Of a stretch of DNA of 49,326 nucleotides, positions 14,448 to 24,110 are shown piece by piece; position 1 is the first letter of the stretch; every line of letters starts with the position of its first letter. The notes below the pieces were generated by a model, which searched no databases, was not told the DNA's origin, and saw only the letters and a program-made list of their open reading frames with translations. The stretch is from sequence record DRR723986_10545; one strand, 5' to 3'. The position numbers were made by a program, and so were the translations under genes.

Positions 14448-16892
14448 TTAAGCCTCTGCTTTTCGTTGTTTGAATACATGGAATATCCCAAGTAAAAATA
14501 AAAGACCTAATATGGCGGAACTAGCAAATGCAATAGAGCTTCCTGTTTCCACAACTTCTGGTTCAAATTTAAACTCAATAATATGATTACCTCTTGGAAC
14601 TTCCATACCTCGTAAAACATAATTAACGCGATAATGAGGCACCAAATTCCCATCTAAATAGGCATTCCAACCGTGTTTATAATAGATTTCTGAGAACATA
14701 ACAAATCCATTATTTTCATTTGAAGCCTCATACTTTAAATAGTTTGGCTTAAATGATTTTAATGCTATGGTCGCTAATGAATCAGTTTCATATTTTAATA
14801 TGTTTATTCTTTCTCTCAACTCTAATGCTGTTGTAACGGCTACAGTCTTTGTATTAATACTATCCAAAGCCATTATTTCTTCGTTCGCAGAAGCTAAAGA
14901 TCTTAACTCATTAACAAACCAGGCATTACCATTTGGTTGCGTATAATAAGTAACAGGAACAGGTCTTCCCTGTTCATCTTGGTCTATAATATATTTGGTG
15001 TTAAGCATATTAAGAACGTTAACATTGTTCTTATAAATATGAAACTCCATCAACTCATTGTAACGTCCTAATTTCGCTGCGTGATAACCAAACAATGAAT
15101 TATGAAAATAAGCTGCTCTAGCTGGCTGACTCTGCCCTATTCGAGAAACGTCTAAAACCCTAAAGTGTTCTTTGTCTTTTAAAATTTCCTTATCAGCTTC
15201 ACTTGATTGATAAGGCGTATCTACATATCGCGCTGGCTTAAAATTATCGTTATTAACGTATTGTCTATCTATAGTTACCAAATCAAACAGAATCAAAATT
15301 ACAAAAATCACCAGTACAAGTCTTTCGGATAACTTCTTTTGTAAAAAAAGGTAAACAGCACCTGCAGATAATAATACAAGGATAAGTGTTCTGATTGTAT
15401 CTGCCGTAAATAATGCTTTTCTATCCTCTATTACAGCATCAATAAAAGCTTGTCCATAGGCTTCAATATAGCTGTCATCTCTAAAGCTTTCAAAATCAAA
15501 TAATGAAGATTTAAATAATAAAAAGACTAAAGCTAATCCTGCTGTTATACCAACAGTATACTTTAAAGCTCTTAACTTTTCTTCATCCTTAGTAAAGTCG
15601 TTGAAGAGCCTAACTAAAGCAAATACAGCGAGCACAGACACACATAGTTCTAATATAACCTGTATTGAACTTACTGCTCTAAACTTATCGTAAAGTGGCA
15701 CATAATTTATAAAGAAATCAGTAAGCAAGTCAAAGTTTTTACCATAGGATAATAATAAGGATAGTAAAGTACCACCAACAAGCCACCATTTTAATCGTCC
15801 TTTTACTAAAAACAAACCAAGAACAAATAGAAATATGACAACAGCACCGATATAAGCGGGAGCTTCAACAATGGGTTGATCTCCCCAATACATAGGTGCA
15901 TTTCTCGAGGCTTCTAATGCTTCTATTGGAGATGCACCAAGATTTACGTAAGCTTTATATGTTTCAGAATCTCTACCGACATCTTCTGAGTTTCCACCAC
16001 CCATAAATTTTGGGATGTATAAATTGAAGGTTTCTAAAATACCATAACTATATTCTGTTATATAATTCTTATCCAAACCAGAAGTGATTTCCTTTTCTGA
16101 ACCATCAGGATTTATAGTAAGTTCGCTTTGTCCACGTGTGCTTTCTTTTACATACTCTTGTGTAGCCATAATGTTCGTTGCATTAAGACCAACAGCTAAT
16201 AAAGCAGCAACCGACAATAAACCTAGAGATTTAAAAAAGTGTGGTAACACTTTCTTTCTATAGGCATCAATTAGATAGGCTAATCCAAGAATAAGAACTA
16301 ATAATAATAAATAGTAAGTCATCTGAAAATGATTGGCTACTATTTCTAATCCTAAAGCAATTGAAGTAAGTAAAAATCCGACTATATATATTTTTCGAAA
16401 AGTTAAAATTATTCCTGCTAATACCATTGGCATGTAGGCAATAGCATGCGCTTTGGCATTATGCCCTACTCCCAATATTATTATTAAATATGTTGAAAAC
16501 CCAAAAGCGAGTGCACCTAAAGCTGCCAGTTTAAAGTCTACTTTGAGCGAACATAATAATATATAAAACCCTAAAAAATATAGAAACAAATAATCTGCTG
16601 GCCTTGGTAAAAAACGTAATGATAAATCTAATTTCTTTATATAATTATGCGGGTATTTAGCGCCTAATTGATATGTAGGCATACCGCCAAATGCACTATT
16701 TGTCCAATAGGTTTCTTCACCAGTTACCTTAGCAAACTCCTTTTGTTGCTGAGCCATACCAATGTAATGCATTATGTCACTTTGAAAAATCTTTTTGTCT
16801 TGCAGAACAGGACTAAAGTATGCTAAGGATAAAGCAATAAAGCCAATTATAATAAGAATATGTGGTAAGAAACGTTTAAGAAATGATGACAT
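14448..16892 (-). CDS. YfhO-family integral membrane protein (putative GT-C glycosyltransferase)
   Basis: QSDI..WTNSAFGGMPTY, NHFQMTYY, GYHAAKL and C-terminal FSEIYYKHGWNAYLDG..RVNYVLRGM. Confidence 0.85.
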   Translation of the reverse strand: MSSFLKRFLPHILIIIGFIALSLAYFSPVLQDKKIFQSDIMHYIGMAQQQKEFAKVTGEETYWTNSAFGGMPTYQLGAKYPHNYIKKLDLSLRFLPRPADYLFLYFLGFYILLCSLKVDFKLAALGALAFGFSTYLIIILGVGHNAKAHAIAYMPMVLAGIILTFRKIYIVGFLLTSIALGLEIVANHFQMTYYLLLLVLILGLAYLIDAYRKKVLPHFFKSLGLLSVAALLAVGLNATNIMATQEYVKESTRGQSELTINPDGSEKEITSGLDKNYITEYSYGILETFNLYIPKFMGGGNSEDVGRDSETYKAYVNLGASPIEALEASRNAPMYWGDQPIVEAPAYIGAVVIFLFVLGLFLVKGRLKWWLVGGTLLSLLLSYGKNFDLLTDFFINYVPLYDKFRAVSSIQVILELCVSVLAVFALVRLFNDFTKDEEKLRALKYTVGITAGLALVFLLFKSSLFDFESFRDDSYIEAYGQAFIDAVIEDRKALFTADTIRTLILVLLSAGAVYLFLQKKLSERLVLVIFVILILFDLVTIDRQYVNNDNFKPARYVDTPYQSSEADKEILKDKEHFRVLDVSRIGQSQPARAAYFHNSLFGYHAAKLGRYNELMEFHIYKNNVNVLNMLNTKYIIDQDEQGRPVPVTYYTQPNGNAWFVNELRSLASANEEIMALDSINTKTVAVTTALELRERINILKYETDSLATIALKSFKPNYLKYEASNENNGFVMFSEIYYKHGWNAYLDGNLVPHYRVNYVLRGMEVPRGNHIIEFKFEPEVVETGSSIAFASSAILGLLFLLGIFHVFKQRKAEA

Positions 16893-16923
16893 GGAATTTG
16901 ACTTAAATCAATTATGCCGAAAA

Positions 16924-17211
16924 TTAATCAATTTCTTCGTAATCGATGTATTCTCCTACCTTTTCATTTGATTTTTTATTCTGATTAGGCATTTTATCAA
17001 TGACCGTTTCTCCCTCTTTCTGTTTTTGTCTTTGCTTAGCTTGATTGTCAAAACCACCAAATTGGTGACCAAACTTTTGTTCTGCTTTCTTTGCTACAAA
17101 ACGTAATAATAATGGCGCAAATAAACGTGCTAAAATCTTAAAACCGAAGTAAAAAAGAAGTATTATTAATATGGTTCTTAATAATCCCATTGCCGAAGCT
17201 TCTTGTATCAT
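16924..17211 (-). CDS. DUF4834-type small membrane protein
   Basis: One N-terminal TM helix and C-terminal GEYIDYEEID. Confidence 0.78.
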   Translation of the reverse strand: MIQEASAMGLLRTILIILLFYFGFKILARLFAPLLLRFVAKKAEQKFGHQFGGFDNQAKQRQKQKEGETVIDKMPNQNKKSNEKVGEYIDYEEID

Positions 17212-17228
17212 AACTAATATTCAATACT

Positions 17229-17298
17229 CAAAAATACGATTATACTGATTTATAATCGGTTAATATTCCTTAAAAAATCTATAAAATATATATATTTG
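17229..17298. promoter_or_regulatory. Divergent -7 promoter pair (DUF4834-YfhO operon versus barrel-GNAT operon)
   Basis: Minus-strand TATTTTTG at 17229-17236 and plus-strand TATATTTG at 17291-17298. Confidence 0.55.
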
Positions 17299-17316
17299 AA
17301 TCTAAACACATATCTA

Positions 17317-18285
17317 ATGCGAATACTCAAATCATTTTTCGTTTTATTCATTTCTTTTTCTTTTACATCAACCTACGCCCAGTATACCGAAGTCATTAAT
17401 TCTAACAGACCTGGAGTTTCGGAAAGTGCATTTTCAGTAGGTACAGGAATAGTACAGTTTGAAGCAGGTGCATTTACAGTTAAAGAAGAGCATACACCTT
17501 TAAATTATGATGTTACTGGCTTTGGACTAGACTTCTCGATTAGATATGGTGTATTGTTTGAACAATTAGAATTTTCATTAGATGGTATTTACCAAAATGA
17601 TAAAATCACATTTAATAATGCCGCTATTCCCATTGAAGACAAACGTGCTAATTTTAAAAACTTAACTATTGGTGCAAAGTACTTAGTTTACGATCCTTAT
17701 AAAAATTCTGAAGAGGCAAAACCCAATTTATATAGCTACCATGCTAATAAAAAATTTCAATGGAAATCACTCATACCTGCTGTTGCTGTGTATGTTGGTG
17801 CTAATTTTGACACAAAAGACAATCCCTTTACTGCACCAGATGTTGAAGGATTTAGCCCTAAAGTAATGATTGCAACACAAAATAATTTTAATGGTGGTTG
17901 GGTGTTTGTTATGAACTTAATTAAAGACAGAATTGGCTCTGAGTTTTCTGAATTTCAATATGTATTGACACTTACACATTCATTTACACCTCAATGGGTT
18001 GTATTTGGTGAAGCTCAAGGTATTAATAGTGATTTTTATGCTGATAATATTTTTAGGGTTGGAGGAGCTTATTTGTGGACACCAAACTTTCAATTAGATG
18101 CTAATATAGCCTTTAACACTAAGGATACTCCATCGGTATTTAACATCGCCTTTGGTGCGTCTTATCGTTTAGATTTTCATAAAGATAAAAAGATTGATAA
18201 TGGTAACGGAAATGATGGGAATTTTAAAAAGAAGAAAAAAAGAAAGAAGAAGAAAAAAAGAAAATCAGACGATTTTGATTCTTAA
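17317..18285 (+). CDS. Outer-membrane beta-barrel 'transporter' (COG4313/MetA-pathway phenol-degradation-like)
   Basis: Signal peptide from MRILKS (17317); NSNRPGVSES..VGTGIVQFEAG N-terminus; alternating beta-strand pattern ending GASYRLDF; polybasic tail. Confidence 0.7.
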   Translation: MRILKSFFVLFISFSFTSTYAQYTEVINSNRPGVSESAFSVGTGIVQFEAGAFTVKEEHTPLNYDVTGFGLDFSIRYGVLFEQLEFSLDGIYQNDKITFNNAAIPIEDKRANFKNLTIGAKYLVYDPYKNSEEAKPNLYSYHANKKFQWKSLIPAVAVYVGANFDTKDNPFTAPDVEGFSPKVMIATQNNFNGGWVFVMNLIKDRIGSEFSEFQYVLTLTHSFTPQWVVFGEAQGINSDFYADNIFRVGGAYLWTPNFQLDANIAFNTKDTPSVFNIAFGASYRLDFHKDKKIDNGNGNDGNFKKKKKRKKKKKRKSDDFDS

Positions 18286-18302
18286 TCATTTACAAAACCC
18301 TA

Positions 18303-19424
18303 ATGATTACAATTAAAGAAGCACGTACTAAAAAAGAGCTTAAGACTTTTGTAAAGTTTCCATTTAAGCTATATTCTAATTCACCTTATTGGGTACCTCC
18401 AATTATTAAACAAGAATTAGCAACTTTTGATAAAGACAAAAATCCAATTTTTAAAGATGCCGAGGCTAGATTCTTTTTAGCCTATAAAAATGGTGAAGTT
18501 GTCGGAAGAGTTGCTGCAATTATTAATTGGTTAGAAGTCAATAAGCAGAACATAAAGAAAATGCGTTTTGGTTGGTTTGATTTTATAGATGATTATAACG
18601 TAAGTGCATCCCTCCTAAGAAAAATTGAAGAGATTGCTATTGCTAATCAACTAAAGTATACTGAAGGACCAGTTGGTTTTTCTAATTTAGATAAGGTTGG
18701 TGTAATGACAGAAGGATTTGAAAGTATAGCACCAATGATTACATGGTATAACCATCCTTATTATGTAAAGCATTATAACAAGCACGGTTATAGCATTGAA
18801 AAAGAGTATTCAGAAAGCGTATTTCCTTTTGAGAATGTGAAACCAGAGTTTTTTAAAAAGGCTCAAGAACTAATTAAAAGACGATATAAGCTCAATGCCT
18901 TAAAATTAACTAAGACCAGTGAAGTTATGCCCTATGCAGATCGTATGTTTGATTTGTTTAACGAAAGTTATGCTAATCTTTCTTCATTTGTAGAAATAAC
19001 AGATATTCAAAAAGAATATTTTAAAAAGAAGTTTATAAGTTTCGTTAACCCTGAATATATAAAATTTGTTACTGATGCAGATGATAATCTAGTGGCATTT
19101 GCTATTGTTATGCCAAAGTTTGCTGAAGCATTACAGAAAGCAAACGGTAAGCTTTTTCCATTTGGTATTAAGCATATATTAAAAGCAAAAAAGAAAAGCA
19201 AAGATGTTATTTTTTACCTTATTGGTGTTCATCCAGAATATCAGAATAAGGGAGTACACGCAGTAATATTTAATGAATATTATGAAACCTTTAAAGAAAA
19301 AGGAATACAAACCTGTTACAGAACTCCAGAATTAGAAGATAATGAAGCTATTCACAAAATTTGGAAGCATATTGATAGTAAGGTTTATAAAAGACGAAAA
19401 ACTTTTAGAAAAGATATTGTATAA
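18303..19424 (+). CDS. GNAT-fold N-acyltransferase resembling bacterial ceramide synthase (bCerS)
   Basis: FVKFPFKLY..YWVPP..KNP..FLAYKNGEVVGRVAAI..RFGWFDFIDD..GPVGFS..EGF..YNHPYY; C-terminal GNAT motif A IGVHPEYQNKGV and ELEDN. Confidence 0.72.
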   Translation: MITIKEARTKKELKTFVKFPFKLYSNSPYWVPPIIKQELATFDKDKNPIFKDAEARFFLAYKNGEVVGRVAAIINWLEVNKQNIKKMRFGWFDFIDDYNVSASLLRKIEEIAIANQLKYTEGPVGFSNLDKVGVMTEGFESIAPMITWYNHPYYVKHYNKHGYSIEKEYSESVFPFENVKPEFFKKAQELIKRRYKLNALKLTKTSEVMPYADRMFDLFNESYANLSSFVEITDIQKEYFKKKFISFVNPEYIKFVTDADDNLVAFAIVMPKFAEALQKANGKLFPFGIKHILKAKKKSKDVIFYLIGVHPEYQNKGVHAVIFNEYYETFKEKGIQTCYRTPELEDNEAIHKIWKHIDSKVYKRRKTFRKDIV

Positions 19425-19451
19425 AAAAAGCCACTTATAAAGTGGCCTTTT
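19423..19451. terminator. Bidirectional terminator between the GNAT gene and capB
   Basis: A7-GCCACTT-ATA-AAGTGGC-CTTTT. Confidence 0.75.
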
Positions 19452-19468
19452 AATTTATATACTAGGTC

Positions 19469-20728
19469 TTATTCACCCATTGCTGCAATAAGAGCAGCAG
19501 ACATTCTTTTATAAGTACCGTTGTTAAGTCTTTCTCTAATAGCATCAAACGCATCTAAAGTTTCTTTTACATCTTCTAATGTATGTGTCGCCGTAGGAAT
19601 CATTCTCAATAAAATAAGCCCTTTAGGGATTACAGGATAAACAACGATAGAACAGAAAATACCGTGATTTTCACGTAAATCTCTTACTAACGCCATAGCT
19701 TCTGGTATACTTCCTTTTAAATAAACAGGAGTTACACAACTTTGAGTTGTTCCTATATCAAAACCTCTCTCTTTTAATCCAGATTGTAACGCATTTACAA
19801 TTTTCCAAAGATTTTCTTTTAACTCTGGCATTGTTCTCAACATATCAAGGCGTTTTAAAGCACCTTTGGTCAAAGTCATTTGCAAAGATTTAGCAAACAT
19901 TTGAGAACGTAAGTTATATTTTAAATAATCTATAATTTCTTGATCACCTGCGATGAATGCACCTGTACTAGCCATTGATTTAGCGAAAGTAGCAAAGTAT
20001 ACATCAATGTCATCTTGAACTCCTTGCTCTTCACCAGCACCTGCACCAGTAGCACCTAATGTACCAAATCCGTGAGCATCATCAACTAAAAATCTAAAAT
20101 TGAACTTCTTCTTTAAAGCTACAATCTCTTTAAGTCTACCTTGCTCACCACGCATACCAAATACTCCTTCAGAAATAACTAATATTCCTCCACCCGTCTG
20201 CTCTGCCATTTTTGTAGCACGCTCTAGATTCTTTTCTAAACTAGCTACATCATTATGTTTGTAAGTAAAACGTTTACCCATATGTAAACGTACACCATCA
20301 ATAATACAAGCATGTGCATCAACGTCATAGACAATGATATCATCTTTACCAACCAAAGCATCAATAGTTGACATAATACCTTGATAGCCAAAGTTCAACA
20401 GGTATGCTGCTTCTTTATTTACGAATTCTGCCAGCTCATTTTGTAATTGTTCATGTAAATCTGTATGGCCAGACATCATGCGAGCACCCATAGGATATGC
20501 AGAACCATATTCTTTAGCAGCTTCAGCATCTACTTTTCTAACTTCAGGATGATTAGCTAGACCTAGGTAATCATTAATACTCCATGTAATTACTTCCTTA
20601 CCTTGAAACTTCATTCTATTAGAAATCTGACCTTCAAGTTTAGGAAACACAAAATACCCTTCTGCCTGTGACGCCCATTTACCTAATGGCCCTTTATCTC
20701 TATAAATCTTTTCGAATAAATCCTTCAT
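19469..20728 (-). CDS. capB: Cysteate-C-fatty acyltransferase (alpha-oxoamine synthase, CapB/SulA) for sulfonolipid synthesis
   Basis: AOS motifs NDYLGL, DAHACIIDG, DDAHG and PLP Lys250 in TFAKS; second Lys280 in QMFAKS where SPT/BioF have FSAS/FTTA-type residues; adjacent to a CBS-like gene. Confidence 0.8.
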   Translation of the reverse strand: MKDLFEKIYRDKGPLGKWASQAEGYFVFPKLEGQISNRMKFQGKEVITWSINDYLGLANHPEVRKVDAEAAKEYGSAYPMGARMMSGHTDLHEQLQNELAEFVNKEAAYLLNFGYQGIMSTIDALVGKDDIIVYDVDAHACIIDGVRLHMGKRFTYKHNDVASLEKNLERATKMAEQTGGGILVISEGVFGMRGEQGRLKEIVALKKKFNFRFLVDDAHGFGTLGATGAGAGEEQGVQDDIDVYFATFAKSMASTGAFIAGDQEIIDYLKYNLRSQMFAKSLQMTLTKGALKRLDMLRTMPELKENLWKIVNALQSGLKERGFDIGTTQSCVTPVYLKGSIPEAMALVRDLRENHGIFCSIVVYPVIPKGLILLRMIPTATHTLEDVKETLDAFDAIRERLNNGTYKRMSAALIAAMGE

Positions 20729-20818
20729 GCGTATTCGTTGCTATTAACCGTCTATAATTACTAAATTAAGTAAAATATAAACTTATAATTTTAGTTAGTT
20801 TAATCTTGTTAGTAGCTG

Positions 20819-20826
20819 CAAAATTA
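20819..20826 (-). promoter_or_regulatory. -7 promoter element for capB
   Basis: Minus-strand TAATTTTG followed by CA, located downstream of the capA terminator. Confidence 0.6.
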
Positions 20827-20886
20827 GGCAATAATATTATGACTGCATAATTTATTTAATCTAAGCTATTAACTAAGTTTTAAACA

Positions 20887-20927
20887 TAAAAATACCTGTT
20901 ACAACAAAGCGTAACAGGCATTTTTTA
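20887..20927 (-). terminator. Intrinsic terminator after capA
   Basis: Minus strand ATGCCTGTTAC-loop-GTAACAGGTAT followed by a T tract. Confidence 0.75.
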
Positions 20928-20940
20928 TATTATTATTTAT

Positions 20941-21978
20941 TTACTTTATATACTCAATAGATGCAGGCGTAGCACTTTTACTATCAAAAAACCCTTGATC
21001 TTGCATCCACTTATCACTATATACTTTACTCATATATCTTGAACCATGATCTGGAAATACAACAACAACCTTATCGCCTTTCTTAAATTCACCTTCTTTA
21101 TTCAATTGCTTTAATGCTTGCATTGCAGCACCACTTGTGTAGCCGACAAAAAGACCTTCTTTATTTGATATTTCGCGAGCTGTATGAGCACTCTCCTCAT
21201 CTGTAACTTTAACAAACTTGTCAATTAAATCAAAATCTGTTGCGGTGGGAATTAAGTTTTTACCCAATCCTTCAATTCGGTATGGATATATCTCTTTATC
21301 ATCAAACTCACGAGTTTCATGATACTTTTTAAGTACTGAACCGTAAGCATCTACTCCAATTACTTTAACCTCTGGATTCTGTTCTTTTAAATACTTTGCA
21401 ATTCCAGATATTGTACCACCAGTGCCACTGCATGCTACTAAGTGCGTGATTTCACCATCAGTCTGATCCCATATTTCAGGACCTGTAGAATTATAGTGAG
21501 CATCAATGTTTAATTGATTGAAATATTGATTAATATAAATAGATCCTTTAATCTCCTCGTGCAAGCGCTTTGCCACCTGATAATATGACCTTGGGTCATC
21601 TGCATTAACATGCGCAGGACAAACGTATACTTTTGCACCCATAGATTTTAACATATCTATTTTATCGCCTGAAGATTTTGAACTTACTGCTAAAATACAC
21701 TCATAACCTTTTATGATACTAACCATAGCAATACTAAATCCGGTGTTACCTGAAGTAGTTTCTATAATAGTATCACCAGGAGTTAATATACCTTGGCGCT
21801 CCGCTTCTTCTATAATATGTAGTGCTATTCTATCTTTAGAAGAATGACCTGGATTAAATGCCTCTACTTTAGCATAAAAATCGCCATCAAAATCGGCAGT
21901 CATTCGGTTTAATTTGATTAGTGGCGTACTACCTACAAGTTGTAGTACATTATCAAATACATTTTTGCTTTTATCCAT
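20941..21978 (-). CDS. capA: PLP-dependent cystathionine beta-synthase-like enzyme, probable cysteate synthase CapA
   Basis: [14 protein letters not shown] (PLP Lys), [20 protein letters not shown] and [11 protein letters not shown]; directly upstream of capB. Confidence 0.72.
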
Positions 21979-22028
21979 AAATGCTATTATTCGGTAATCA
22001 ATTTAATTATTTGACACCTAAAACCCAG

Positions 22029-22036
22029 CAAAAGTA
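22029..22036 (-). promoter_or_regulatory. -7 promoter element for capA
   Basis: Minus-strand TACTTTTG followed by C. Confidence 0.6.
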
Positions 22037-22052
22037 ACATTTTTTTTTGACT

Positions 22053-24110
22053 TTACTCTGTAATACCTTCTAAGTCTAACAGAAATGCATATTCTTCTGC
22101 GTCCTCTTTTAAACTTTCAAATCGACCAGATGCTCCACCATGACCAGCATCCATATTTGTTTTTAGGTAAAGTTTATTTGAGTCTGTTTTTAAATCTCTT
22201 AATTTCGCTACCCATTTTGAAGGTTCCCAATATTGAACTTGAGAATCGTGCAAGCCTGAGGTGACAAGCATATTAGGATATTCTTTTTCTTCAATATTAT
22301 CGTATGGAGAATATGACTTCATATAATTATAATACAAAATATCGTTTGGGTTTCCCCATTCATCATACTCGCCTGTTGTTAATGGTATAGAATCATCTAA
22401 CATCGTAGTGACAACGTCTACAAATGGCACTGCCGCAATAATTCCGTTATATAACTCTGGCGTTTGATTAATAATTGCTCCCATTAATAATCCTCCAGCG
22501 CTACCACCCATGGCATATAAATGTTTTGACGATGTATAACGTTCTTTTATCAAGTGCAAAGAACAGGCAATGAAATCACTGAATGTGTTTTTTTTATTTA
22601 ATAACTTTCCTCTTTCATACCAATTACGACCAAGATATTCACCACCTCTTACGTGTGATATAACAAAAATAAATCCGCGATCTAAAAGACTTAATCTTAT
22701 GGTTGAGAAATACGGATCTACAGTAGATCCGTAACTACCATAAGCGTACTGAAGTACCGCATTCGTTCCGTTTTTTTCAATTCCTTTTCTATAAACAACA
22801 GACATTGGTATTTTAGTTCCATCCTCTGCTGTTGCCCAAATACGCTCAGATTTGTAGTTTTCTTTCTTAAATTTTCCACCTAATACTTCTTGCTCTTTTA
22901 GTACCTTCTTGGTTTGAGTTCGCATATTAAACTCTATTATGGAAGATGGAGTTGTTAAAGCATTATATCCATATCGGAGTAATTCTGTGTCAAATTCTAT
23001 ATTAGTTGTTGTAAAACACGTATAGGTCTCGTTATCAAAAGGTAAATAATATTCTTGAGTCTCATCCCACCTTTTTATTCTGATTTGATTTAAACCATTT
23101 GATCTTTCACTGACAACCAAGTAATCTTTAAATATGTCAACGTTTTCTAGTAAAACATCTTCACGATGAGAAATAACATCTACCCAATTATCAATTTGAG
23201 TATTATTCTCTGGTGTAGACATTAATTTAAAATTAGTGGCCTTATCCTTATTAGTTAGTATGTAAAACTTATTATTATAATGCGAAATACTATATTCTAC
23301 ACCTCTTATTCGTGGCTGAAAGAGCTCAAACTTCCCATCAGGTTTATCTGCATTTAGTATATGATACTCATTAGTCAGTGTACTATAACATGCTATAATA
23401 ATATACTTTCTGGATTTTGATTTATATACAGTTGCACCAAAAGTTTCATCACCTTCTTCAAAAATTAACTCATCTTCTGAATTACCGATTTTGTGCTTAA
23501 AAATTTGAAATGCTCTTAATGTAACTTTATCTTTTTTAGTATAAAATAATGTTTCGTTATCATTTGCCCAACTAGACGAACCAGTTGTGTTTTCAATTTT
23601 ATCCTTTAAGATGGTATTAGTTTCAAGATTCTTAATTTGCACCGTATACTGTCTTCTTCCTGTAGTATCTAAGGCAAAAGATACCATTTTATTATCAGGA
23701 CTAATACTAAGACCAACCATTTTAAAGTAACTCTTCCCTTCTGCCATTTCATTACAATCAAAAAGTAATTCTTCAGGATTGTCTAAAGATTCTTTTTTTC
23801 TTGTATAAATAGGATAATTTTTACCTTTTTTAAATTTTGTGATGTACCAATAGCCATTGTACTTGTAAGGCACAGAAGAATCATCTTCCTTTATTCTGGC
23901 TTTCATTTCTTCAAATAAATCTTTCTGAAATTGTTTGGTGTGTGCCATCTGAGAATCGCAATAACTATTCTCATCATTTAGATAACTAATCACTTCTGGA
24001 TGTTCTCTATCTTTCATCCAAAAGTAATTATCTATACGTACGTCTCCGTGCATTTCTAACTTATGTGGTATTTTCTTGGCTGTTGGAGGCTTAATATTTG
24101 TTTTGTTCAT
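22053..24110 (-). CDS. ptrB: Oligopeptidase B (S9A peptidase)
   Basis: HGDVRIDNYFWM, YGSYG, GGSAGGLL, VPFVDV, DSQVQYWEPSKW and AGHGG motifs. Confidence 0.92.
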   Translation of the reverse strand: MNKTNIKPPTAKKIPHKLEMHGDVRIDNYFWMKDREHPEVISYLNDENSYCDSQMAHTKQFQKDLFEEMKARIKEDDSSVPYKYNGYWYITKFKKGKNYPIYTRKKESLDNPEELLFDCNEMAEGKSYFKMVGLSISPDNKMVSFALDTTGRRQYTVQIKNLETNTILKDKIENTTGSSSWANDNETLFYTKKDKVTLRAFQIFKHKIGNSEDELIFEEGDETFGATVYKSKSRKYIIIACYSTLTNEYHILNADKPDGKFELFQPRIRGVEYSISHYNNKFYILTNKDKATNFKLMSTPENNTQIDNWVDVISHREDVLLENVDIFKDYLVVSERSNGLNQIRIKRWDETQEYYLPFDNETYTCFTTTNIEFDTELLRYGYNALTTPSSIIEFNMRTQTKKVLKEQEVLGGKFKKENYKSERIWATAEDGTKIPMSVVYRKGIEKNGTNAVLQYAYGSYGSTVDPYFSTIRLSLLDRGFIFVISHVRGGEYLGRNWYERGKLLNKKNTFSDFIACSLHLIKERYTSSKHLYAMGGSAGGLLMGAIINQTPELYNGIIAAVPFVDVVTTMLDDSIPLTTGEYDEWGNPNDILYYNYMKSYSPYDNIEEKEYPNMLVTSGLHDSQVQYWEPSKWVAKLRDLKTDSNKLYLKTNMDAGHGGASGRFESLKEDAEEYAFLLDLEGITE

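Follow-up and report, generated by a model that had tools for sequence, protein, structure and literature searches.

The window analysed here is the whole stretch of DNA of 49,326 nucleotides from sequence record DRR723986_10545. At 18303..19424 on the plus strand it contains an open reading frame (ORF) that starts with ATG and encodes a 373-residue tandem-GNAT protein of the bCerS/YghO family. This gene of a marine flavobacterium, referred to below as the GNAT gene, is at present the strongest candidate for the enzyme by which sulfonolipids acquire their second fatty acid. A capB-type gene (19469..20728, minus strand) faces it tail-to-tail across a spacer of 44 bp. A hairpin scan and the sequence itself reveal a hairpin in the spacer (19430..19446), with a stem of 7 bp and a loop of 3 nt (GCCACTT-ATA-AAGTGGC). 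The hairpin is preceded by A5 and followed by the T-rich CTTTTAATTT, and thus reads as an intrinsic terminator on both strands, common to the GNAT gene and capB. The ORFs and the spacer hairpin agree with the first-pass annotation, which had described a 373-residue GNAT protein tail-to-tail with capB and a terminator common to both.

The capB product (419 residues) is an alpha-oxoamine synthase (AOS) of the cysteate-C-fatty acyltransferase type. It matches PF00155, scores 305 bits on the SPT model NF047600 (CFB group; cut-off 640), and is 76–95% identical to the AOS adjoining CapA in relatives. At the presumed cysteate-marking site, matched by eye to published positions, it reads QMFAKS, with the M-F-A-K string; the cysteate enzymes are described as having Met277, Phe278 and a marker Lys280/281 (PMC13692747, PMC9304779; papers are cited here for their accessible portions). 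The capA gene (20941..21978, minus strand) encodes a cysteate synthase of 345 residues, which scores 655.6 bits on NF053679 (CysteaSynCapA; curated cut-off 600). The window thus holds both parts of the CapA/CapB gene set, a CapA above the curated cut-off and a CapB-type AOS with the cysteate-marking lysine.

The only Pfam match in the 373-residue protein is PF00583 (GNAT), at residues 242–349 (E 6.4e-07; 30.1 bits, cut-off 20.7), and NCBIfam gave nothing above noise. The AlphaFold2 model, computed from a 130-sequence alignment, has a mean pLDDT of 95.8 and a pTM of 0.91. A Foldseek search of the PDB with this model returned the tandem-GNAT proteins 2wpw, 7q3a and 5kf1 and the mycothiol synthase entries 1ozp and 2c27 (E 1e-14 to about 3e-09, 9–13% identity). 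When the PDB was searched by sequence, no real match was obtained and no solved structure of the bCerS family surfaced. Pfam and the model agree on a GNAT fold with the acyl-CoA-binding β4-α3 loop, which corresponds to YQNKGVHA (residues 313–320) in the C-terminal half and includes the near-invariant G317. The family-invariant residues lie mostly in the N-terminal half (P32, G68, R69, G90, G122, P123, G133, G138, Y149 and Y154). Every element of the motif list in the first-pass annotation was found in the protein: WVPP (30–33), KNP (46–48), GR-x-A as GRVA (68–71), FG-x-F as FGWF (89–92), GP (122–123), GF (125–126) and YN-x-PYY as YNHPYY (149–154). Over 60 family members, P32, P48, G68, R69, G90, G122, P123, Y149 and Y154 are near-invariant. 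The list is only partly kept in the three aligned proteobacterial members, in which GF and the YN-x-PYY string are absent. No hydrophobic or membrane segment was found (the highest 19-residue Kyte-Doolittle mean is 0.97), and the product is probably a cytoplasmic, membrane-peripheral protein.

The top database relatives are Winogradskyella and Psychroserpens proteins with 80–92% identity, and close relatives are labelled either "GTP cyclohydrolase" or "GNAT family N-acetyltransferase". Matches in the ESM Atlas fall into "putative GTP cyclohydrolase" or GNAT clusters and no others. An identity as GTP cyclohydrolase can be dismissed: no such family is found by Pfam or NCBIfam at E ≤ 0.01, the fold is that of a tandem GNAT, and the source labels are its sole support. 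The suspicion, raised in the first-pass annotation, that this automatic label is baseless was therefore correct.

Membership of the bCerS/YghO family was established through full-length homology. Among 1.84 billion representative proteins, 5606 relatives were found at E ≤ 0.001 and 500 at E ≤ 1e-30, and nearly all of those listed are aligned across the whole 373 residues. Plasmid records, some of which are in fact chromosomes, were searched with tblastn. Matches over the full length were obtained with E. coli YghO (24% identity, E 3e-26) and with proteins of Roseomonas marmotae (25%, E 4e-34) and Sphingomonas parapaucimobilis (26%, E 1e-27), as well as with Bacteroides, Phocaeicola and Prevotella proteins at 35–38% identity. 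Pairwise alignments to the three proteobacterial members are colinear (E 4e-35 to 6e-44). In Roseomonas, the family gene stands after LptF/LptG paralogs and before a nucleotidyltransferase gene, in a cluster that also includes genes for ACP, an AOS, a diacylglycerol-kinase-family protein, a CDP-alcohol phosphatidyltransferase, a fatty acyl-AMP ligase and an NAD-dependent epimerase. The Sphingomonas gene is found with genes for an NAD(P)H-binding protein, ACP, an AOS, LptF/LptG and a desaturase, and the neighbours of E. coli yghO are a fatty acyl-AMP ligase gene, an epimerase gene, an ACP gene, a gene annotated spt and lptG/lptF paralogs. These layouts agree with the published maps of Caulobacter, where CC_1156/CC_1155 are LptF2/G2 and CC_1154 is cerS (PMC11324152), and of E. 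coli BL21, where the putative N-acyltransferase ECD_02850, a good homolog of the Caulobacter one, is accompanied by aasR, a reductase gene, acpR and spt (PMC9386255). From the full-length matches and the sphingolipid neighbourhoods of the relatives, it follows that the window protein is a member of the bCerS/YghO family, as judged from sequence. The homology was traced through the E. coli, Roseomonas and Sphingomonas members, and the link of YghO/ECD_02850 to Caulobacter CC_1154 is taken from PMC9386255. The bCerS-type homology claimed in the first-pass annotation thus holds over the whole length of the protein (E 3e-26 to 4e-34). The linkage to an AOS that makes a long-chain base is likewise found at the window locus, with a CapB-type partner and not Spt.

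Of 5426 complete E. coli genomes, 4549 carry the family member yghO. In one strain (L087; NZ_AP022222.1, 775697-794818), it borders a complete cluster of spt, acpR, reductase, aasR and lptF/G-paralog genes. The RefSeq name of the product is still only "protein YghO", although the cluster has been published for BL21 (PMC9386255). Gut Bacteroidales contigs encode a 548-residue form (cluster P0146), in which the GNAT protein is apparently fused to a methionine sulfoxide reductase A-like tail; the cluster includes a 186-residue protein of a Phocaeicola that is named MsrA.

The distribution of the family was analysed in a sample of 401 Bacteroidota genomes (G labels), on which the statements about the absence of SPT are based. 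In this sample, the complete Winogradskyella genome G001 stands proxy for the window genome, as its GNAT protein and CapB are 85% and 95% identical to those of the window. The family is close to universal in Bacteroidota, with matches at E ≤ 1e-20 in 365 of the 401 genomes. A quick maximum-likelihood tree of 64 members, with SH-aLRT support only, resolves two clades. Clade I (20 rows, support 100) unites the three proteobacterial members with Bacteroidota proteins that are 27–33% identical to the window protein, and clade II (44 rows, support 100) contains the window protein itself, in a subclade of 19 rows with a support of 93. All genomes of this subclade encode either CapB (60–93% identity) or a CapB-like AOS (49–51%). 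Judging by the names of identical or 90%-clustered proteins, its genera include Flavobacterium, Polaribacter, Tenacibaculum, Nonlabens, Aegicerativicinus, Chryseobacterium (C. camelliae) and Membranihabitans. Chryseobacterium and Flavobacterium are sulfonolipid producers, and one 90%-identity Flavobacterium cluster of orthologs includes an F. johnsoniae protein.

CapA exceeds the curated cut-off in 29 of the 401 genomes. None of the 29, G001 included, has an SPT or an SPT-like AOS (at least 440 bits on NF047600). Their AOS at E ≤ 1e-70 are only of the KBL type (about 340–350 bits) and the CapB type (about 285–310 bits), with one extra KBL-type match in G356; in G001, the only AOS besides CapB is a KBL-type protein of 31% identity. 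Exactly one family member, 47–85% identical to the window protein, is present in 27 of these genomes. The GNAT gene could in principle be an ordinary ceramide synthase that serves a separate SPT-based pathway elsewhere in the genome, given that it belongs to the bCerS family and that clade-II relatives adjoin a true SPT in G064, G200 and G216. The absence of any SPT-type AOS from the 29 CapA-positive genomes, and the AOS content of G001 in particular, make this very improbable. The separate SPT pathway that the first-pass annotation had set against its own reading is thus absent from these proxies.

The association of the GNAT gene with capB is also physical. The two genes lie less than 1 kb apart in at least 16 of the 27 CapA-positive genomes that carry the GNAT gene (G001, G164, G280, G220, G392, G292, G356, G320, G340, G124, G052, G096, G264, G148, G308 and G344). 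Adjacency is probable in G296, whose capB row is not among the matches listed. Of the ten other CapA-positive genomes, G013 and G056 have the two genes at distances of 14 kb and 248 kb, respectively, and the rest have them on different contigs. In five genomes (G340, G124, G052, G344 and G308) capA is located 125–620 kb from the capB-GNAT pair, which indicates that the link between the GNAT gene and capB outlasts that between capA and capB. Adjacency to capA was dropped as a criterion because capA is often distant while capB stays beside the GNAT gene. A contig scan with the GNAT protein, which yielded 80 closest relatives, all from Flavobacteriaceae, found capB in the flank of 71; among the nine others the flank is cut in three (L020, L069 and L075) and is complete and lacks capB in six (L006, L032, L034, L052, L072 and L076). 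The whole neighbourhood is syntenic in these 80 relatives, and the count of 71 therefore adds little independent weight.

Taken across the phylum, the oxoamine synthases with which the family is paired are of three types, namely CapB, true SPT and an SPT-like class. In 17 genomes, an SPT-like AOS (465–505 bits) lies immediately upstream of the clade-I gene on the same strand. A CerR-type NAD epimerase adjoins the pair in eight of the loci fetched, and two GT4 glycosyltransferases do so in five others. This cassette occurs phylum-wide (L130, L131, L133-L135, L137, L138 and L143; L139-L142 and L145), and its epimerase is divergent. The loci are clustered, contrary to the description of Bacteroidota sphingolipid genes as not clustered (PMC11334938). 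All 25 tested genomes with only a clade-I-level match carry an SPT-like AOS. Conversely, 15 of 18 tested genomes without a family match lack both SPT and SPT-like AOS, the three exceptions being G066 (gene cut by a contig end), G039 (AOS at a contig edge) and G108 (only a member of 22% identity). A true or near-true SPT (606–674 bits) adjoins the clade-II gene in G064, G200 and G216, and in G200 and G216 the pair is joined by genes for an epimerase, an SDR, FabA and a beta-ketoacyl synthase (KAS).

Several clade-II genes (L102, L106, L124-L127, L108 and L109) are followed by SDR, FabA-like and KAS genes, and are flanked by a GT2 glycosyltransferase gene with a match to GT21, the ceramide glucosyltransferase family. 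These flanks suggest a dedicated supply of acyl chains and glycosylation of the product. Two further loci combine synthase types or family copies. In L150 (G108:C3:204000-215000), a true SPT (675 bits) and a CapB (66%) are located about 1.5 kb apart with one 379-residue gene between them, and the sole family member of G108, 22% identical, is located away from this locus. In addition to its window-type copy, a Polaribacter-type genome that encodes CapA and CapB has a second, deep-branching clade-II copy of 33% identity (L128, G056:C1:1777055-1786167). The three synthase pairings and the near-universal family widen the likely range of sphingolipid-like lipids in Bacteroidota.

A difference in charge that correlates with the partner synthase was found in the loop at residues 125–132, putatively on the substrate side, which reads GFSNLDKV in the window protein. 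Two groups of clade-II proteins were compared. One consists of 18 proteins whose genomes encode CapB but lack an SPT-type AOS. The other consists of six proteins from five CapB-less genomes; an SPT-like AOS is encoded in one of the five (G076) and a true SPT in the other four. In an automatic screen, columns 78 and 128 were the only ones that discriminated between the groups; the pattern at positions 131 and 132 was read by eye from the alignment region. The CapB-only group has the form GF(S/T)N(L/M)DK(V/A), with N128 in 17 of 18 proteins, K131 in 15 of 18 and E132 in none, and the SPT group has the form GFTD(F/M/L)D(H/S/R)E, with D128 and E132 in all six. All 79 evaluable flavobacterial loci show GFSN[LM]DKV. 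The N128/K131 form is also found in G105, G261 and G321, which combine a CapB-like AOS with an SPT-like AOS that is paired with a clade-I gene. The loss of two acidic residues and the gain of a lysine would suit an anionic sulfonate that replaces a hydroxymethyl group, as far as can be inferred from the residues.

CapB is the sole long-chain-base synthase in the lineage and the GNAT gene lies beside capB, which makes capnine or 3-dehydrocapnine the likely acceptor. On balance, we consider it probable, on sequence evidence, that the candidate N-acylates one of the two. From the computed homology, fold, neighbourhoods, phyletic pattern and loop difference, we infer the following substrate, acyl donor, loop role and place in the pathway. 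A member of the bCerS/YghO family would have been recruited to the CapA-CapB sulfonolipid pathway in this flavobacterial lineage. CapA would make cysteate, and CapB would condense cysteate with a fatty acyl thioester to yield 3-dehydrocapnine. With acyl-CoA or acyl-ACP as donor, the GNAT enzyme would then attach another fatty acyl group to the 2-amino group of 3-dehydrocapnine or capnine, and the product would be an N-acyl capnine of the sulfobacin type. The acyl donor would be held by the C-terminal GNAT domain through the loop YQNKGVHA, and the family-specific N-terminal domain may help to hold the long-chain base, with GFSNLDKV suiting the sulfonate head group. As to the order of steps, the literature suggests that the keto base is acylated in Caulobacter and B. 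fragilis (PMC11087976; bioRxiv 10.1101/2023.05.23.541633), and free 3-ketocapnine is a substrate of the capnine reductases, both in E. coli and in vitro (PMC11211663).

The GNAT gene has a second set of stable neighbours. Upstream of the GNAT gene, in the same orientation, lies a gene for an outer-membrane beta-barrel protein with a Lys-rich tail (OMP; 17296..18285, plus strand; PF13557, E 2.8e-36). The OMP gene and the GNAT start codon are 17 bp apart, and the two genes are probably co-transcribed. They also adjoin each other in 79 of 80 related loci. A DUF4834 gene (16924-17211, minus strand) and a gene for a YfhO-like membrane protein of 814 residues (14448-16892, minus strand) travel with the OMP and GNAT genes. 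This trio, which may place or export the lipid, has a more stable link with the GNAT gene than capB has.

These neighbours bear on a rival explanation, in which the acceptor is another amine-bearing lipid or envelope molecule, handled together with the OMP and the YfhO-like protein, while a different enzyme N-acylates the sulfonolipids. In all nine A1 loci fetched, the YfhO-like, OMP and GNAT genes are kept in this order, and capB adjoins them in five, which speaks for such an acceptor and weighs against the sulfonolipid assignment. Clade-II genes also occur in the CapB-less genomes G326, G386 and G230, whose SPT-like AOS already has a clade-I gene as its partner, and 12 CapB genomes (see below) have no clade-II member. 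However, all family members with informative context adjoin an oxoamine synthase for a long-chain base, CapB is the only such synthase in the CapA-positive flavobacterial genomes, and the OMP link is limited to Flavobacteriaceae. The known N-acyl amino-acid lipid synthases, GlsB and OlsB/OlsF, bear other names in the accessible literature and probably belong to a different protein family; Pfam returned only GNAT families for the 373-residue protein. Another acceptor is thus unlikely, although it is to be kept in mind.

Points against a role in sulfonolipid N-acylation also come from genomes that have CapB and lack the GNAT gene. CapB of at least 60% identity, or CapA above the cut-off, was found in 52 genomes; the CapB query was run on 100 genomes that were chosen on purpose and not at random. 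A clade-II gene is present in 40 of the 52 and missing from 12, of which 11 have no family member at all and one (G108) has only the 22%-identical one. Two of the 12, G116 and G092, which the protein names suggest to be Psychroflexus and a Gillisia metagenome-assembled genome, carry CapA and a CapB that is 85–86% identical to that of the window, and no family member was found in them even at E ≤ 1. In G092 (locus L149, G092:C14:39000-50000), the genes for PepS9, CapA, CapB, OMP, DUF4834 and YfhO follow in the same order as in the window (14448-24110) with the GNAT gene missing, and capB is 48 bp from the OMP gene. The locus looks like a natural clean deletion of the GNAT gene, and offers a ready natural control for lipid analysis. 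Nine further genomes without the family (E ≤ 1e-20) have a CapB of 63–66% identity. In a quick CapB tree, with SH-aLRT support only, the 12 genomes fall in at least seven places. N-acylation in these genomes is thus either dispensable or carried out by another enzyme.

The loop and the adjacency data have counterexamples of their own. G064, G200 and G216 encode both SPT and CapB and have one family member only, which adjoins SPT and has the D128 loop, so that the loop rule may not be general. D128 is also found in six proteins from genomes with a CapB-like AOS of 49–51% identity, and the loop groups that were compared are related by descent. Descent confounds the neighbourhoods in the same way, as close relatives inherit them and much of the adjacency is not independent.

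Because GNAT-less CapB genomes exist, the protein might instead be one of at least two sulfonolipid N-acyltransferases and supply a subset of the acyl chains, such as 3-hydroxy as against non-hydroxy chains, or sulfobacin A as against B. In that case, losing the gene would alter the lipid profile without abolishing N-acylation. The KAS, FabA and SDR genes beside some clade-II members suggest a special acyl supply, and sulfonolipids with 3-hydroxy and with plain acyl chains have both been described (PMC9304779). On the other hand, the flavobacterial genomes carry a single family member, and the neighbourhoods of capB in nine GNAT-less loci revealed no recurrent gene that could serve as an alternative acyltransferase, and hence no second candidate. 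We regard a division of labour of this kind as quite unlikely.

The reading of the GNAT gene as a sulfonolipid N-acyltransferase, first put forward in the first-pass annotation, is thus partly supported, by the homology, by its status as the sole family member in flavobacterial genomes with CapA and CapB but without SPT and by its repeated adjacency to capB. The co-occurrence with capB in the absence of SPT, which that annotation had named as a check, stands for the 27 of 29 CapA genomes with a sole family member, but it is not strict, as the 12 of 52 CapB genomes without a clade-II gene demonstrate. A more far-reaching proposal can be made only tentatively. The bCerS family of Bacteroidota may be split by head group, with the window protein as the missing fourth enzyme of sulfobacin synthesis, the sulfonate being read by a loop with swapped charges (N for D128, V or A for E132, and a new lysine at 131) and the co-transcribed OMP helping in outer-membrane placement.

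The N-acylation step has remained without an enzyme in the literature searched. No enzyme is named for it in the accessible portions of PMC9304779, PMC11211663, PMC13692747, PMC11525784, PMC10191378 and PMC12927429, nor in full-text searches, and subscription papers and supplements may hold more. PMC10191378 draws the step without an enzyme, and is one source for Chryseobacterium and Flavobacterium as known producers. A CerS homolog of Algoriphagus, a sulfonolipid producer, bound a sulfonolipid probe in a study from 2022 that refers to a figure of a hypothetical pathway (PMC9825905), and the idea of a sulfonolipid CerS is therefore not wholly new. An experimental assignment of an enzyme to sulfonolipid N-acylation was not found in the accessible literature, in line with the statement in the first-pass annotation that no characterised capnine N-acyltransferase is known. 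Sulfonolipids are needed for gliding motility, trigger rosette formation in choanoflagellates and act on host TLR4 signalling (PMC10191378, PMC3463246, PMC11525784). Enzymes are assigned to three of the four steps towards sulfobacin-type lipids, and a named candidate would make the gap at N-acylation directly testable. An ortholog adjoins capB in Flavobacterium, for which genetic methods are established; in the F. johnsoniae-type genome G344 the distance between the two genes is about 0.8 kb. The E. coli system in which the reductase step was reconstituted (PMC11211663) could take the GNAT gene as the fourth. Metagenome searches for sulfonolipid producers, at present based on cysteate synthase and CapB only, would also benefit from the candidate.

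The window protein was compared with several known systems. It shares the two-domain fold (Foldseek E 1e-14 to 6e-10, TM-score 0.5–0.7) with the enzyme of the clavulanate pathway (2wpw), MAB_4324 (7q3a), a glucosamine N-acetyltransferase (5kf1) and the mycothiol synthase MshD (1ozp). These enzymes use short acyl donors and unrelated acceptors, and the identity is only 9–13%. The comparison with Caulobacter bCerS/CerS (CCNA_01212 = CC_1154) and E. coli YghO/ECD_02850 was drawn through the YghO-type members. These proteins have about 370–385 residues, are colinear with the window protein from end to end, and have W(V/I)PP, KNP, VGR(I/V), GP, the PFG loop and LE-x-N in common with it. In both systems the gene is linked to an AOS that makes a long-chain amino-ketone base. 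The window protein has no predicted membrane segment, and bCerS is reported to be peripheral and cytoplasmic (PMC11087976). By contrast, the identity to the proteobacterial members is only 24–26%, these belong to clade I and the window protein to clade II, and the partner is CapB, which uses cysteate, instead of Spt, which uses serine. The acyl-donor loop QNKG is intact in the window protein and degenerate in the proteobacterial members.

The ceramide synthase of B. fragilis, BF9343_4218, was found by its homology to CCNA_01212, and its knockout accumulates 3-ketosphinganine (bioRxiv 10.1101/2023.05.23.541633). Members from Bacteroidales (B. finegoldii, 38% identity, Phocaeicola and Barnesiella) are located in clade II together with the window protein, and BF9343_4218 may be a further clade-II protein. 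The Bacteroidales clade-II proteins have the D128/E132 loop and come from genomes with a true SPT and no CapB, whereas the window combines the N128 loop with CapB. With respect to the sulfonolipid pathway of CapA, CapB and CapC (Cys, CFAT and KCR, or SulA), the window capA and capB adjoin the GNAT gene. The sulfonolipid route comprises four steps, of which PMC11211663 identifies the third enzyme. The GNAT gene corresponds to none of the three described enzymes, and its product would be the fourth.

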